4,500 nt of DNA. Source: a virus. Its lineage: Duplodnaviria; Heunggongvirae; Uroviricota; Caudoviricetes. Position 1 is the first letter of the stretch. Each line of letters begins with the position of its first letter. Both the position numbers and the translations under genes were made by a program. The notes beneath the pieces are model-generated. The model searched no databases. It saw only the letters and a program-made list of their open reading frames with translations, and had not been told where the DNA came from. This document shows positions 1 to 4,500 of this stretch, piece by piece. The stretch is from IMG/VR virus record IMGVR_UViG_2529293213_000032, positions 1 to 4,500 of that record; one strand, 5' to 3'.

Positions 1-760
1 GTTTTTCCGGGTCATAGTTTGACGGTACCTGGATGATGCGACCGCGGATATGGTAGTTCACCGTCATCTGCTGACCGCCAAACTGCTCCGCATCCACCTG
101 CAGCCCCACAATCGCCGTGTTCGGGTAGCACTGTTTCACATCGATGATTTCGGTGTATGACGACCAGAGCGTCTTATTCTGCAGCTGGTCCGTGGTGCTG
201 TCCGCCGTCTCCCTGACCATCCGGATGTTAAAGGGGCGGGGAGGCAGATTCTCCAGAATCACCGACGCCAGGTACTGTGAGGTGGTCTTGCCGTTAATGG
301 TGACATCCTTTTCCGTCACCCAGTTACCGTTACGCTGCAACTGAATCAGCAGTCGGACAGAAGAGTGATTACGGTCGCCCTTTGAGGTGGTCTCCAACAG
401 TGACTGCACCCCGAAGGTGACCCGCAGGCGGTCAATGTTCGCGGACGTAATGGTGCGCGTCACCGGTTTTGCCTTCGTCACTTCCACGCCCAGTCCGGTT
501 TCAGCTCCGGAGGACTCAAAGCCTTCCGGTGGTGTCTGCTCCTGCTCCCCGGCACGCCAGACCGCGGTCACACCGTGTATCACGGGATTGCCGTCCGTGT
601 CCGTCAGTGGGGTTTTGTTCACCAGAATACTCTGCAGTCCCTTCACCGGACCTTCTATCGGTCCCTCACCAATCGCATCAATCACACTCATCATCTGCGT
701 GGATTTGAGATTATCCTTCGCCTCACGAGGCGTGTGTGCCTTACCGCCACCTTTTCCCAT
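1..760 (-). CDS. J: Tail tip / host specificity protein gpJ, N-terminal 253 codons (partial; 3' end lies beyond the window start)
   Basis: Manual reverse-complement translation from ATG at 760..758 is open to position 1 and reads MGKGGGKAHTPREAKDNLKSTQMMSVIDAIGEGPIEGPVKGLQSILVNKTPLTDTDGN...NIRMVRETADSTTDQLQNKTLWSSYTEIIDVKQCYPNTAIVGLQVDAEQFGGQQMTVNYHIRGRIIQVPSNYDPEK. This closely matches the lambda gpJ N-terminus as I remember it (MGKGSSKGHTPREAKDNLKSTQLLSVIDAISEGPIEGPV...). RBS GGGGAAGG lies 4 nt upstream (766-773 region). Absent from the supplied ORF track, presumably because there is no in-window stop. Confidence 0.9.
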   Translation of the reverse strand, partial: MGKGGGKAHTPREAKDNLKSTQMMSVIDAIGEGPIEGPVKGLQSILVNKTPLTDTDGNPVIHGVTAVWRAGEQEQTPPEGFESSGAETGLGVEVTKAKPVTRTITSANIDRLRVTFGVQSLLETTSKGDRNHSSVRLLIQLQRNGNWVTEKDVTINGKTTSQYLASVILENLPPRPFNIRMVRETADSTTDQLQNKTLWSSYTEIIDVKQCYPNTAIVGLQVDAEQFGGQQMTVNYHIRGRIIQVPSNYDPEK

Positions 761-866
761 ACAGCCTTCCCCTGAATAAATTAACCGCCACTTGCCATTC
801 CGTACAGAAGTCGGATATCCTTCGCCCGAAAAGCATGAAACACATTTCTGCCATGCTAAAGAGAAA

Positions 867-898
867 CCCCGGTATCAGCAGATACCGGGGTTTTCTTT
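867..898. terminator. Rho-independent terminator hairpin, plausibly bidirectional
   Basis: Perfect 10-bp stem CCCCGGTATC (867-876) / GATACCGGGG (881-890) with 4-nt loop AGCA, followed on the plus strand by TTTTCTTT (891-898). It is preceded by AAAGAGAAA (858-866), which gives TTTCTCTTT after the stem on the minus strand. Confidence 0.6.
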
Positions 899-965
899 CA
901 TGCCCACCGATAATCCTGTTGGTTAAAACCGGTAATGGCATAAAAATTCTGAATATCTTCACATT

Positions 966-993
966 TTCACACACTGACTGTGGCGCTTATAAT
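966..993 (+). promoter_or_regulatory. Sigma70-like promoter: -35 TTCACA (966-971), 16-nt spacer, -10 TATAAT (988-993); AT-rich upstream region 930-960
   Basis: Read directly: consensus -10 hexamer, 5/6 match to the TTGACA -35, acceptable spacer, A/T-rich UP-like tract upstream. Oriented opposite to the tail genes. Predicted transcription start near 1000. Confidence 0.45.
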
Positions 994-999
994 TTCGCT

Positions 1000-1098
1000 G
1001 CGTTAGTGTTTTTTTGCCCGAGTAACAAAAACAACTCCTTAACATTGATCTTCATTTGTCTGTCCCCGCAGCTCCGCGATCACTGCGGGATTTTTTTA
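1000..1098 (+). ncRNA. Candidate small non-coding RNA (~100 nt) between the promoter at 966-993 and the terminator at 1065-1098; antisense orientation relative to the tail operon
   Basis: Inference from a promoter plus intrinsic terminator pair with no plausible ORF between them (no ATG on the plus strand in 1000-1096). The predicted transcript contains a CUCCUU anti-Shine-Dalgarno-like motif (about 1036-1041) and ends in a GC stem plus U-run. No homology claim is made. Confidence 0.25.
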
Positions 1099-1099
1099 T
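1065..1099 (+). terminator. Rho-independent terminator (plus-strand orientation)
   Basis: 7-bp GC-rich stem CCCGCAG (1065-1071) / CTGCGGG (1083-1089), 11-nt loop, then ATTTTTTTAT (1090-1099). On the minus strand there is no T-run after the stem, so it is unidirectional for plus-strand transcripts. It sits 4 nt outside the I stop codon. Confidence 0.6.
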
Positions 1100-1102
1100 G
1101 TT

Positions 1103-1783
1103 TTATCCCTGTCGCCCGACAACCACGACCGTTCCGCCCCCGCCTTCATCACGGGTGCTGATGTCCTGGGATATACGGCGGGAGCCAACCAGCATTTCCC
1201 CGTAAGGCACCGGCATCGGGTTCCCCTGGGCAATCATGTTATCCAGCGAGGAAAAGTACGTGTTCTGTCTGCCGTTATCCGTTGCGCGGTAATCCGGTGT
1301 TTTTGCCTTCGGGGCCAGCATCTGGGCCACACCGCCCAGAATCATGCTGGCTCCAAGTGAAAACAGCATCGTGGTGGCAGAAAAACCACCGGCTGCCAGG
1401 GCTGAACCCCATAACGCCATTGATGCCCCGGCAGTGAAGAAAGAGCCCACGATGGCTGCCGCCCCCAGCACAATCTGCAGTCCACCCTTTCCGGCCCCGG
1501 CCAGTCGCGGCACAATATGGATGACCGTTCCCTCACCCAGCTGTTCGTGAAGACGGGCGTACACCGCCTCCGGTGCCGTGTCATAACCGGCAATACGTAT
1601 CTGGTACCAGCCTTCGTTCATCTGACGGCGAAAGCCCGGCACCTGTAACGACAGCGCCCGGATGGCTTCCGCTGCCGTGTTCACATACAGGCTGAGGCGG
1701 CGGCCAAATCGTTGTAAATCCCCGTGAAGGCAGATACGTGCCAGTGGCGGTGACGCCAGGCTGAATGCGTTCGTCGTTGCCAT
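1103..1783 (-). CDS. I: Tail tip assembly protein gpI homologue (226 aa)
   Basis: ORF-track protein MATTNAFSLASPPLARICLHGDLQRFGRRLSLYVNTAAEAIRAL... matches the lambda gpI N-terminus as remembered (ubiquitin-like domain, ...ARICLYGDLQRFGRR...). It has the central Gly/Ala-rich hydrophobic segment and the C-terminal NTYFSSLDNMIAQGN...YGEMLVGSR motif. Putative RBS GGAGAGG is upstream of ATG 1783. The 5' end overlaps the K 3' end by ~103 nt in another frame, as K and I overlap in lambda. Confidence 0.9.
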   Translation of the reverse strand: MATTNAFSLASPPLARICLHGDLQRFGRRLSLYVNTAAEAIRALSLQVPGFRRQMNEGWYQIRIAGYDTAPEAVYARLHEQLGEGTVIHIVPRLAGAGKGGLQIVLGAAAIVGSFFTAGASMALWGSALAAGGFSATTMLFSLGASMILGGVAQMLAPKAKTPDYRATDNGRQNTYFSSLDNMIAQGNPMPVPYGEMLVGSRRISQDISTRDEGGGGTVVVVGRQG

Positions 1784-2425
1784 TTTTCGGAATACCTCTC
1801 CCGTTTACTCAGTTGTTCAGGCAGATGGTGAAGCAGTTCACCGTTGCCGCAGTATATGGCGGCATGATTGGCCACCGATGCGCCAAAGCAGCACAGCAGG
1901 ATATCGCCAGGCTGTGCGGAAGGCAGGGAAATCCTAGTAAAAACCAGTACGCCTCCATATTGTCCAGGTACAGGTTCTGACCGTTGCGCCACCAGTCATC
2001 CTCACGCTCAAAATCCGGCATGTTATTCCCGCCAGATGGTATGCATCCCGGAACAGGGTGTAACAGTCCGTCACCCCGTGCTCAAAACGACGCCCGGTCA
2101 GGTGCGGCACACAGCGGAATTTGTGAATTTCCCCCCGGCAGACCAGCCACCAGGGCAGGGCACTCTTTATCTGCAGCCGCCGGTCCGCCTCGCTCAGCCA
2201 GGGCAGGCCACCGGGGTGGCTGTGGACCAGTGCCACAATCTCCCCCTGCATCTCTGCCCGCAGCCAGTCTTCCGGTGCAATACGAAAATACGCCTCCGGC
2301 TCTGCGGAAATATTCACACAAGGGATATACCACTCCCCCTCCGGCGTGCTTATCACGAAGCCGCACGACTCCGCAGGCGCACACCGCCGGGCATGCGCCA
2401 GAATCGCTGATTCAGTCTGTGTCAT
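1681..2425 (-). pseudogene. K: gpK-like tail tip assembly protein (JAMM/MPN domain plus NlpC/P60 peptidase domain) with the reading frame interrupted twice; either a pseudogene or a sequencing indel artefact
   Basis: Three consecutive minus-strand frames carry contiguous K-like sequence. Frame A 2425..2024: MTQTESAILAHARRCAPAESCGF...HSHPGGLPWLSEAD...GVTDCYTLFRDAYHLAGI (JAMM motif H-x-H-x7-S-x2-D at 2183-2224; NlpC/P60 catalytic Cys codon 2063-2065). Frame B 2021..1950: MPDFEREDDWWRNGQNLYLDNMEA. Frame C 1947..1681: LVFTRISLPSAQPGDILLCCFGASVANHAAIYCGNGELLHH...TGIYNDLAAASACM (NlpC/P60 His motif, His codon 1864-1866). The frame switches need a 1-nt deletion near 2022-2024 and another near 1948-1950. 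The out-of-frame continuations look like non-coding junk (Cys/Trp/Arg-rich). Start ATG 2425 is 10 nt after the L stop. Confidence 0.55.
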
Positions 2426-2435
2426 AAACCGGGAT

Positions 2436-3134
2436 TTACTGCGAAAGTTTATTAATGGAAAGGAAACCGCCAAAATTGCCGACATTCCTGCGCAGTTCAC
2501 ACCCGCGCATGCACTTGCTGCATCTGTCCTTACGGATATCCGGGGTGGGGTTGTCGAACTCATCCGCCACCGCAGGACCGTTATACCCGCATTCATCTCC
2601 CCGGTAATCCCACATACAGGTGTTCGCCAGCATGATGCGACCGGGAAACAGCGCCCCGTCCGTCTCGGTCGGTGTTGCCAGCACAAACGAGGCTGTCATG
2701 GCCGTCAGCTCTGACATCTGCTCCACCACCCAGCGGTCTCTCAGCTCCTGCTCCGGGTCCGCTTCCGGATTGCCCGCCACAAAATTCACCGCATCCAGAA
2801 AACGGGCATACACCCGGCGGCGGACCACCGTGGCACCCACCAGGCTCTGCAAATCCTCCGCCATCCCGGTGACAAGACCGAACAGATTGGACACCGTCAG
2901 CGACGGGCGGGCACTGCTGCCCTTCCCGTTCATCTCAAAGCCACTGCCGTCAATCGGGTATACCTGATATTGCCGCCCCTGCCAGGTGACCGCCTCCCCT
3001 TTTTCATTCAGCTCATTACAGAAAAAATACCGCTCACCGCCCTGCACCGTCAGGTCGATTTCCCAGAGCACCACCCGCGGTGACTGCTCTGACTTAACCG
3101 ACTCGTTCAGGCTTTCTTCATGAATATTCTGCAT
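2436..3134 (-). CDS. L: Tail tip protein gpL homologue (232 aa) with C-terminal four-Cys Fe-S cluster motif
   Basis: Translation from ATG 3134..3132: MQNIHEESLNESVKSEQSPRVVLWEIDLTVQGGERYFFCNE...GNFGGFLSINKLSQ, matching lambda gpL as remembered (MQDIRQETLNECTRAEQSASVVLWEIDLT...). The C-terminal cysteines (DEC...DRC..SKC..RGC) fit the reported gpL iron-sulfur cluster ligands. The ORF-track start at 3161 is 9 codons upstream and lies inside M; the ATG at 3134 shares one nucleotide with the M stop (TGATG), consistent with translational coupling. Confidence 0.9.
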   Translation of the reverse strand: MQNIHEESLNESVKSEQSPRVVLWEIDLTVQGGERYFFCNELNEKGEAVTWQGRQYQVYPIDGSGFEMNGKGSSARPSLTVSNLFGLVTGMAEDLQSLVGATVVRRRVYARFLDAVNFVAGNPEADPEQELRDRWVVEQMSELTAMTASFVLATPTETDGALFPGRIMLANTCMWDYRGDECGYNGPAVADEFDNPTPDIRKDRCSKCMRGCELRRNVGNFGGFLSINKLSQ

Positions 3135-3430
3135 CAGTTCACCACCTGCTCTATCGTGCAACTGAAATCACTGTACCGGGCATTATCCGTGACACTCCAC
3201 TCACGGCACACAACCCTCACCGTCCGGTTATGTTTCGGCGGTCGCCACAAAAAGGCACGGTAACCACCATGCCAGGATAAAAATTCATCCAGCCAGCGCC
3301 GGGTTGACTCATCCGTCACCCGGAACACCGCCTGAAACGTCTTCAGTTGAGGATTCAGCCCTGTGGGCGCGCTGTTCATAACCGTCACCAAACCGCACCT
3401 CACCACCGACGGCTTCTCACTCACCTGCAT
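3134..3430 (-). CDS. M: Minor tail protein gpM homologue (98 aa as called; start uncertain)
   Basis: MQVSEKPSVVRCGLVTVMNSAPTGLNPQLKTFQAVF...FLWRPPKHNRTVRVVCREWSV...FSCTIEQVVN aligns with residues ~12-109 of lambda gpM as remembered (C-terminal EQVVN conserved). In-frame stops TAG (3452-3454) and TGA (3467-3469) upstream preclude a lambda-length N-terminus. An alternative GTG start at 3424 has better spacing to the AAGGG RBS-like sequence. Confidence 0.85.
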   Translation of the reverse strand: MQVSEKPSVVRCGLVTVMNSAPTGLNPQLKTFQAVFRVTDESTRRWLDEFLSWHGGYRAFLWRPPKHNRTVRVVCREWSVTDNARYSDFSCTIEQVVN

Positions 3431-3531
3431 CCCTTCACGCGGGACCAGATGCTAGCGTTTTTTATCTCAGCCACTCAGCATTCCTCCGTCACGTCGCATG
3501 GACAGCATCACCGCCTGCACCCGCTGGTCAA

Positions 3532-4500
3532 TCAGCTGCACAGACTGCCTGCCGCCTCCGGCCCTATCTGTCCGTTAGCCCCGTCATTCTGAATGGCAAT
3601 GTGGTAGACCGGGGAATACACCAGACCAGCACTGCCGTTCATACTGCCCACGGCGCGTACGCCCAGCGAGCCATCCGCCGCCCGGGTCAGGGGCATAATA
3701 GCTTCAGGTCCGGCTTCCCCCATCAGCCCGGCCCCTTTTGCAAACGCAAAGTACGTGGGCGTGTCCACAATGCTGTTGCTGTACGCGCTCAGGTTTGCCG
3801 AGGTATACACGCCGCCTTTTGCATTGGCCACCGCTCCGCCCAGCCAGTCACCAATGCTGCCGAGAAATCCTCCCGCACCGGACATACCGTTTGCCGCCGT
3901 CTTAATTCCGTTGACAATCGCGGCATTCATAAGAACTTTTGATATTTCCTGCAGCACTGATGAGGCCCAGCTGCGCCATTCCACTTTATTTCCGTTCAGC
4001 ATCTCCGTGATGTTATTCACCATCCCTGAGATACCCTCCGTCGCCAGCTGTGCTGCCTGTGAGGCGTAATCGGACGCATTATCCACCCAGTTACTGAATC
4101 CCTCCTGCAGCCCTTTCTGCCAGTCCGCACGCTGCACATCCGATTCGGCATAAAAGACTGCCTGGTCCTTAAGGCGTTCGCTCAGATACTGCGCGTTCTG
4201 TGCCAGCGCCTGTCTGTAAAAATCCTCACTGATATCCCCGGTCTGATACTGAGACTGAAGGTCCGCATCCTTCTGGCGGAAGCTGTCGCGGATCTGCTGC
4301 AACTCCCGCATGCGTTCTCTGGCTCGTTCTCCCTGCCCGTATCCCAGCAGTTCGGCTTCATTTGATGCACGCGCAGCCACATTATCATTCTTCAGGGTCT
4401 CTTCCCGGGATCGCAACTGTTCCCGGATTTTTTGCTGGTCAATCAGGGCCGCGTTACGCAGCAGTTCCTGCTTCTGCATCTCCGTCAGGGTTTTCAGTTC
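3532..4500 (-). CDS. H: Tail tape measure protein gpH, C-terminal ~322 codons (partial; 5' end lies beyond the window end)
   Basis: The frame is open from 4500 (ELKTLTEMQKQELLRNAALIDQQKIREQ...) to the TGA at 3532-3534. The coiled-coil-like charged N-terminal part and the Gly/Ala-rich C-terminal part (GMSGAGGFLGSIGDWLGGAVANAKGGVYTSANLSAYSNSIVDTPTYFAFAKGAGLMGEAGPEAIMPLTRAADGSLGV...) are typical of lambda-like tape measure proteins, and the gene sits immediately upstream of M-L-K-I-J. The 3' end is uncertain (see findings). Confidence 0.85.
   Translation of the reverse strand, partial: ELKTLTEMQKQELLRNAALIDQQKIREQLRSREETLKNDNVAARASNEAELLGYGQGERARERMRELQQIRDSFRQKDADLQSQYQTGDISEDFYRQALAQNAQYLSERLKDQAVFYAESDVQRADWQKGLQEGFSNWVDNASDYASQAAQLATEGISGMVNNITEMLNGNKVEWRSWASSVLQEISKVLMNAAIVNGIKTAANGMSGAGGFLGSIGDWLGGAVANAKGGVYTSANLSAYSNSIVDTPTYFAFAKGAGLMGEAGPEAIMPLTRAADGSLGVRAVGSMNGSAGLVYSPVYHIAIQNDGANGQIGPEAAGSLCS

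Follow-up and report, generated by a model that had tools for sequence, protein, structure and literature searches.

Introduction

PasB (pathogenicity-associated sRNA B) is an Hfq-dependent small RNA (sRNA) known in enteropathogenic Escherichia coli (EPEC), where a prophage carries its gene. The present analysis concerns a 4,500-nucleotide stretch of DNA from a virus of the Caudoviricetes (IMG/VR record IMGVR_UViG_2529293213_000032, positions 1 to 4,500; hereafter "the window", at its full length), in which the unit at 940-1102, between the tail genes I and J, is PasB as judged by its sequence. An earlier reading of the same letters (the original prediction) had guessed at an sRNA locus without being able to name it. 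That guess was right, and the element is not new.

PasB was described in prophage PP6 of EPEC O127:H6 E2348/69, between E2348C_1436 and E2348C_1437 (Pearl Mizrahi et al. 2021, PMC8550237), as an 83-nt RNA encoded by the NC_011601 minus strand (1466343 to 1466261; Table S6, PMC8550237). Northern blotting detects it at the predicted size, Hfq is needed for its stability, and its log2 fold change in an hfq deletion reaches -6.8 in the activating and -2.4 in the nonactivating condition (PMC8550237). It is also more abundant in overnight static lysogeny broth (LB) than in Dulbecco's modified Eagle medium (DMEM). RIL-seq, in which interacting RNAs are ligated and sequenced, assigned it 37 interactions, which ranks it 15 among all RNAs; its partners in the activating condition are bfpB, bfpI, ftsZ, galE, ler, perB, and rplX, and in the chimeras PasB is the 3' partner, ending at 1466260-1466261 (PMC8550237). 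More recently, a variant differing from PasB at position 27, PasB-2, has been reported by Zhu, Shabalina & Storz (2026), according to whom the E2348/69 sequence is not the commonest one (bioRxiv 10.64898/2026.05.13.724894).

In enterohaemorrhagic E. coli (EHEC), three sRNAs termed EcOnc22, EcOnc23, and EcOnc24 were found on the plus strand in the prophages Sp15, Sp14, and Sp11, respectively, of strain O157:H7 Sakai (Tree et al. 2014, PMC4104026). They measure about 85 nt by Northern blotting, with the probe GGGAGAGAACGATGAAGATTAACTGATGAGTTA, and are destabilised without hfq (PMC4104026). The PasB entry of Table S6 names no EHEC homologue (PMC8550237), the Zhu et al. 2026 preprint does not mention EcOnc (bioRxiv 10.64898/2026.05.13.724894), and a 2021 review lists the targets of EcOnc22 as unknown.

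Two anti-sRNAs of Shiga toxin and lambdoid prophages, AgvB and AsxR (RF02702, RF02703), resemble PasB in being short and Hfq-binding, with their own promoter and terminator and a moron-type position. They differ from it in lying 3' of PR' near the stx and lysis genes and outside the tail operon, in their length of 51-60 nt, and in a different conserved 3' domain. Their models have no match in the window; as a positive control, the AgvB model found AgvB1 in Sakai. The first morons described encode proteins, unlike the PasB cassette, which encodes only an RNA. Otherwise the cassette is like the phage morons of Juhala et al. (2000): it is extra DNA of different composition, set between genes that almost adjoin each other in lambda, equipped with a promoter and a terminator and probably expressed from the prophage. 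Its putative autonomy rests on a promoter and a terminator predicted here and on expression in lysogens, documented in the literature for near-identical and homologous alleles.

Identification of PasB between genes I and J

The sRNA of ~100 nt that had been proposed from the sequence, transcribed from the plus strand against the tail operon and bounded by a promoter and a terminator of its own, matches the validated PasB. Alignment of window positions 941-1110 with the E2348/69 locus reveals identity at all bases but one. The published 83-nt RNA is recovered at 82 of 83 positions and its promoter without change, the sole substitution being A at position 1041 of the window for C in E2348/69, at nt 27 of PasB. 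The reverse complement of the PasB Northern probe, AATCCCGCAGTGATCGCGGAGCT (Table S6, PMC8550237), is found exactly at 1070-1092 of the plus strand. RefSeq annotates E2348C_1436 and E2348C_1437 as a tail assembly protein and the tail tip protein J, with a gap of 240 bp, so that in both genomes the unit occupies the same I-J position on the strand opposite to the tail genes. Junction, strand, promoter, terminator, and exact probe match are hence common to the two loci, which differ in the base at nt 27, in the DNA to the left of the cassette, and in the length of the spacer (342 bp in the window vs 240 bp).

The A at 1041 fits the PasB-2 allele of Zhu et al. 2026. In the sample of viral contigs (see below), the allele of the window occurs 16 times and that of E2348/69 5 times; the element is a further copy of a described sRNA, in its common allele. 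The term "antisense", under which it had been introduced, holds for its orientation only: the transcript (from 1000 or 1015 to 1097) is wholly intergenic and overlaps no opposite-strand coding sequence or ribosome-binding site.

The Rfam search recommended with the original prediction was run over the whole window and gave no match at an E-value ≤1. AgvB, AsxR, Esr41, STnc100, IsrK, and other named prophage sRNAs are excluded by this empty scan, and the PasB family has no Rfam model. As a whole, the locus is very probably best explained by a PasB-family sRNA gene at 940-1102, a non-coding moron placed between I and J and opposite to the late tail operon.

Relationship to EcOnc22, EcOnc23, and EcOnc24

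In the current Sakai record, the EcOnc22/23/24 coordinates land in the 240-bp I-J spacers of three prophages, with peaks that, taken literally, lie 22-84 bp from the J start. Judged by the AgvB1 peak, the coordinates of the 2014 Table S2 are offset from the current Sakai sequence NC_002695.2 by about +137 to +146 bp, at least at 1.94 Mb. With this shift, the three peaks fall on the PasB-equivalent unit; without the correction, the coordinates of Tree et al. 2014 assign peaks to a wrong feature. In the reverse complement of the EcOnc probe, the last 23 nt, GTTAATCTTCATCGTTCTCTCCC, match exactly at 1375-1397 of the Sp15 locus (L010) on the plus strand, i.e., on the PasB strand, and a CCCGCAG...CTGCGGG-T7 terminator lies just downstream. 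As extracted from the PDF, this reverse complement has no exact match for its first ten bases. From the probe sequence and the shift-corrected coordinates, we infer that EcOnc22/23/24 and PasB form one family.

The three Sakai copies (Sp15, Sp14, Sp11) are identical to each other. They share with the PasB of the window the I-J position, the orientation, the TCTGA-N6-TCACATTT block, the AACUCC and UUAAUCUUCAU blocks, a -10 of the form xATAAT, and the CCCGCAG/CUGCGGG-U7 terminator, and with the PasB of E2348/69 the dependence on Hfq. In contrast, they have no good -35 and a different 5' third, and the Sakai module is only about 69% identical to that of the window.

Another arrangement is observed in Sakai prophage Sp10 (locus L014), where STnc100 (728-920, plus strand) and AgvB (921-982, minus strand) are convergent and end at the neighbouring bases 920/921. 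Tree et al. 2014 (PMC4104026) describe these two convergent sRNAs, which have no relation to the I-J locus.

Promoter, terminator, and transcript

Scanning viral contigs for the pattern gave at least 120 loci, which together with the other loci fetched make up 137 instances and 64 unique alleles; conservation is given below for these 64 alleles. The near-consensus sigma70 promoter of the original prediction was recovered by the promoter scan: TTCACA-16-TATAAT on the plus strand (966-993), with 11/12 matches, is the best promoter-like site of the window. The number of such sites in the whole window (3, with 2.3 expected from shuffles) is by itself not significant. Within the -10 hexamer, A989 and T990 are each kept in 62/64 alleles, A992 in 64/64, and T993 in 63/64, and G1000, C1001, and G1002, the first of which is the predicted start, are each kept in 61-62 of the 64.

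The intrinsic terminator was likewise recovered. The terminator scan reported 1073-1089 plus the T-run, and RNAfold favours a perfect 7-bp stem, CCCGCAG/CUGCGGG, followed by A and U7 (Table 1). A covariation check with RNAalifold on the 64 alleles, also advised at the time, identified the terminator stem as the only structure; it gave no evidence of covariation either way, the stem being essentially invariant in a sample whose search pattern required the terminator 3' arm and which leaves variant stems outside. The loop is hypervariable. Compared with shuffles, the body of the RNA is mostly unstructured. Hfq-dependent sRNAs usually consist of a single-stranded seed, a terminator, and a U-tail.

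As had been stated, no credible open reading frame (ORF) lies between promoter and terminator: there is no ATG within 1000-1097, and the only frames there cross the terminator and are devoid of a ribosome-binding site. Predicted transcript lengths range from 90 to 103 nt, and the indels between alleles are not multiples of three. Such frame-breaking indels indicate that the locus is non-coding.

A conserved CRP-like site

Between an A-tract in the position of an UP element and the -35 hexamer, the cassette harbors a CRP-like site. It is the only site of the window within one mismatch of TGTGA-N6-TCACA, vs 0.12 expected by chance. Its left half, TCTGA, is invariant in 64/64 alleles selected by a pattern that demanded the right half of the site and not the left one; two spacer positions vary. 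The -35 hexamer is variable, whereas the CRP-like half-sites are invariant, and a poor -35 adjoining a conserved dimer-type site suggests that the promoter may depend on an activator. By eye, positions 948-963 fit LexA at 5/6 core bases (CTG-N10-CAT) and FNR at 6/10, both below the 9/10 for CRP.

The higher level of PasB in static overnight LB than in DMEM, which contains glucose, fits activation by CRP. CRP represses Spf. Between LB and DMEM, Spf changes in the opposite way to PasB (PMC8550237). We infer that CRP might control PasB via this putative site.

Candidate seeds and RIL-seq targets

The CUCCUU stretch noted earlier as resembling an anti-Shine-Dalgarno sequence is located at 1035-1040 on the plus strand, within the first of two candidate seeds (Table 1). 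Inside the RNA, conservation is highest in the blocks AAYUCC (1033-1038) and UUAAUCUUC (1045-1053), and Zhu et al. 2026 propose that the seed lies in the single-stranded part directly preceding the terminator (bioRxiv 10.64898/2026.05.13.724894). Seeds were assessed by comparing the E2348/69 allele with six RIL-seq target fragments, the longest complementary run being scored against dinucleotide shuffles. Nucleotides 30-60 of PasB display a summed longest-run complementarity above that of shuffles (p about 0.02 over the six fragments), and the 5' 29 nt, used as a control, do not (p 0.67). Full-length RNAduplex comparison of PasB with the RIL-seq fragments returned long spurious duplexes, no better than shuffles, and was replaced by this longest-run test.

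Individually, UCCUUCACA forms a perfect 9-nt pairing with the ler fragment, and ACAACUCCU (9 nt) and AUCUUCAUUU (10 nt) pair with the bfpI fragment. In the E2348/69 allele, the first candidate seed has 9-nt pairings with both ler and bfpI; the second has a 10-nt Watson-Crick match to bfpI and 8-9 nt matches to ler. The perB fragment contains a GAAGGAG to which CUCCUUC can pair over 7 nt. The excess of complementarity over shuffles is suggestive only. The A at 1041 would break the 9-nt match to ler, and it creates CUCCUUA, 7 nt that equal the anti-Shine-Dalgarno 3' end of 16S rRNA. As the common allele differs from the studied one in a likely seed, the RIL-seq targets of E2348/69 may not transfer to it.

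Distribution and diversity of the family

The cassette proved variably present, in line with its description as a moron-like insert. Of 5426 complete E. coli genomes, 1809 contain its 159 bp (944-1102), which occur at 5516 places in all, as many as 10 in one genome, when some part of the 4.5-kb window is matched in 4435; phage lambda lacks the cassette and has a hairpin in its shorter I-J gap. The best match per record ranges from 100% identity down to the 60-80% band. Among the matches listed, all but one of 25 records have no annotation under the cassette, and none of the RefSeq records listed annotates the sRNA. Carried by roughly one in three complete E. coli genomes and without an Rfam model, the family is one that sequence scans will keep "rediscovering"; since the element had already been described, the main value of the present identification lies in correct annotation. 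It adds the family link between PasB and EcOnc22/23/24 and a conserved CRP-like site that hints at regulation. It also documents a diversity beyond a few single-nucleotide polymorphisms, with 64 unique alleles in a small sample.

Among species-representative genomes, the strict pattern was found in E. albertii only, besides two short contaminant contigs. NZ_JBHTEB010000006.1, filed under Streptomyces flavalbus, is 95% identical to the tail region of the window with a GC content of 0.59, and NZ_FWPT01000051.1, filed under Parendozoicomonas haliclonae, is 82% identical with a GC content of 0.50. Both are almost certainly E. coli prophage contamination.

Two viral contigs possess two different PasB-like units each, in the same orientation. 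In contig L053, the units (4420-4553 and 4645-4784, minus strand) stand head to tail beside gene I, and a CRP-like block, a -10, and a terminator are present in each of them; in contig L063, they occupy 543-679 and 996-1128. These pairs suggest that the cassette can be stacked by recombination.

Proposed mode of action and alternative explanations

In a lysogen, host RNA polymerase would produce an RNA of about 83 nt, stabilised by Hfq and ligated on it to many mRNAs, as is the case for the E2348/69 allele. Transcription would start near G1000 from the TATAAT promoter and stop at the U7 terminator. The RNA would act in trans by imperfect pairing through the single-stranded region 1031-1057, altering the translation or stability of host and virulence mRNAs, and through the conserved TCTGA-N6-TCACA its expression would come under the influence of CRP-cAMP or of a related regulator. 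The target preference of the A1041 allele would differ from that of E2348/69, because the substitution sits in one of the candidate seeds.

A broader proposal joins these elements: a widespread and swappable I-J sRNA cassette, wired to CRP-cAMP by the invariant site, whose diversifying seed ties different sets of host and virulence mRNAs to carbon status in each prophage, with the CUCCUUA of A1041 shifting pairing to strong ribosome-binding sites and the left-hand module serving as a second RNA unit or an insulator. We put it forward as a speculation that is doubtful in this combined form.

Several observations weigh against PasB as a CRP-wired, trans-acting sRNA in the window. CRP usually activates from -41.5 or -61.5. 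The CRP-like site is centred at neither, but at about -44.5, and its left half has a C where TGTGA has its first G; the difference between LB and DMEM could equally reflect growth phase or oxygen. The seed test comprises six fragments only, of which two are individually notable, and folding of the whole RNA yields no more stability than that of shuffles (z -0.8 to -0.9). The start predicted from the -10 lies 15 nt upstream of the published 5' end (1015), and since this end was set from RNA-seq coverage and not mapped (PMC8550237), the length is 83 or about 98 nt. Finally, expression is known for the E2348/69 allele, one base off, and for the Sakai homologue only, and the literature reports no mutation-validated target and no phenotype for PasB.

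One alternative is that PasB acts mainly in cis, by pairing with its own late mRNA, with effects on RNase III cleavage, stability, or the I:J ratio, or by convergent transcriptional interference. Its gene keeps a fixed place within the late operon of many phages, on the opposite strand, and the RNA could pair without a mismatch with the I-J part of the transcript of the tail operon; since the PasB terminator does not resemble one on the operon strand, late transcripts would carry the full complement. However, the RNA misses both the I coding sequence, its 3' end being 5 nt from the I stop, and the J ribosome-binding site, about 240 nt away. It is detected in lysogens, where the late operon is expected to be silent, and it is joined on Hfq to unlinked mRNAs. 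The combination of conserved flanks and highly variable internal sequence is also better suited to changing targets in trans, and a mainly cis-acting PasB is considered unlikely.

A longer antisense RNA, driven by the same promoter and extending past the terminator to lie antisense to I and K, would make of the short RNA a by-product or an attenuated leader. Some read-through is plausible at such a modest hairpin, with a 7-bp stem and an 11-nt loop; however, seven U's follow the stem, the published RNA ends exactly at the U-tract, Northern blots detect about 83-85 nt in two strains, and the chimeras end at 1466260-1466261, which leaves this alternative very little room. That the region encodes a small protein, as the mechanical ORFs 736-1161 (plus strand) and 741-974 (minus strand) and the short hypothetical proteins annotated here in some phage records would have it, was rejected as extremely improbable, given a transcript without ATG or Shine-Dalgarno sequence, ORFs that cross promoter and terminator, allele indels of 1, 2, 4, and 5 nt that break any frame, and annotated ORFs that shift place and strand between records.

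Organisation of the spacer and of the neighbouring tail genes

The PasB-family sRNA gene is embedded in minus-strand lambdoid tail genes that comprise, from right to left, the tape-measure gene H (3' part), M, L, K, I, and the start of J. The features of the locus are collected in Table 1.

Table 1. Features of the I-J region, in window coordinates (strand: +, plus; -, minus; a dot, none assigned)
Feature	Positions	Strand	Basis or remark
J (tail tip / host specificity), 5' part	1-760	-	Sequence and RefSeq annotation of near-identical loci
I-J intergenic spacer, two modules, 342 bp	761-1102	.	Sequence, composition, alignments
Left-hand module	761-936	.	No homology left of about 937 with E2348/69, Shiga toxin (Stx) phages, or Sakai
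Strong hairpin, core stem CCCCGGUAUC/GAUACCGGGG (861-870/875-884), extended by flanks	858-897	.	Fold of 828-900
A-tract ATAAAAAT, UP-element position	940-947	+	All 64 unique alleles have A at 940 and 942-945
CRP-like site TCTGA-ATATCT-TCACA, then TTT	948-963	+	Centre about 44.5 bp upstream of the predicted start
-35 hexamer TTCACA	966-971	+	Promoter scan; variable among alleles
-10 hexamer TATAAT	988-993	+	Promoter scan; xATAAT kept across alleles
Predicted primary transcript, 98 nt	1000-1097	+	Promoter geometry, if the start is G1000, 7 nt past the -10
PasB as published, 83 nt	1015-1097	+	Mapped from NC_011601 1466343-1466261 by alignment
Candidate seed 1, ACAACUCCUUAACA	1031-1044	+	AAYUCC kept in most alleles; holds CUCCUUA (1035-1041), with A1041 the substituted base
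Candidate seed 2, GAUCUUCAUUU	1047-1057	+	Conserved block and matches to bfpI and ler fragments
Rho-independent terminator: stem 1065-1071/1083-1089, 11-nt loop, A1090, U7 1091-1097	1065-1097	+	Terminator scan and RNAfold
Tail assembly gene I	1103-1783	-	Longest ORF; 1103-1684 in RefSeq annotation of relatives

The 342-bp, AT-richer spacer exists as had been described, with the J start codon (ATG, 758-760 on the minus strand) and the I stop codon (1103-1105) as its borders and a GC content of 0.39-0.47 over 751-1125, compared with about 0.53-0.65 in the flanking tail genes. The gap of "a couple of nucleotides" that had been attributed to lambda is in fact 60 bp long (15445-15504), I ending at 15444 and J starting at 15505, and the usual I-J spacer of related Stx and lambdoid phages is ~240 bp. 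The notion of a single insert holds insofar as extra DNA lies between I and J, but the 342 bp are made of two parts: the PasB cassette, which begins with the conserved A-tract at about 940 and ends at the I stop codon, and an unrelated module to its left, from 761 to about 936.

The left-hand module is found in 1446/5426 E. coli genomes, with at least 99% identity in 1442 of 1451 matching records, and among the matches listed it is unannotated in all but one of 30 records. The fold of 828-900 (-31.9 kcal/mol, z = -7.1) was equalled by 0/200 shuffles. Its hairpin, with an A-rich run upstream and the U-rich UUUUCUUUC downstream, looks like a terminator on both strands in this predicted fold. A weak promoter-like site at 792-821 raises the possibility that, together with the hairpin, it could yield a plus-strand RNA of about 70 nt.

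The left part of the 240-bp spacers possesses a hairpin of its own, CAGGCACCC-CGGA-GGGTGCCTG. On the plus strand an A-run precedes it, which makes it resemble a terminator for transcription along the tail operon. In this direction, a U-run follows a hairpin just upstream of J both in lambda (15445-15504, corresponding to 1446-1505 of locus L009) and in the Sp15 locus (1230-1265 of L010). The position of this intrinsic-terminator-like element within the late operon is thus kept between lambda and the 240-bp spacers, but its sequence is not.

None of the complete E. coli genomes matches the window at 99% identity or more. Compared with the closest one, that of O157:H7 FRIK944 (98.4% identical), indels of 1-2 bases break the frames of K (at 1936, 1949, and 2025), M (3367, 3397, 3453, and 3458), and H (3541) in the window; the spacer itself is identical between the two. 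These indels reflect either decay of the tail genes with the sRNA left intact or sequencing errors; the extra bases at 1936, 3453, and 3458 fall in homopolymer runs.

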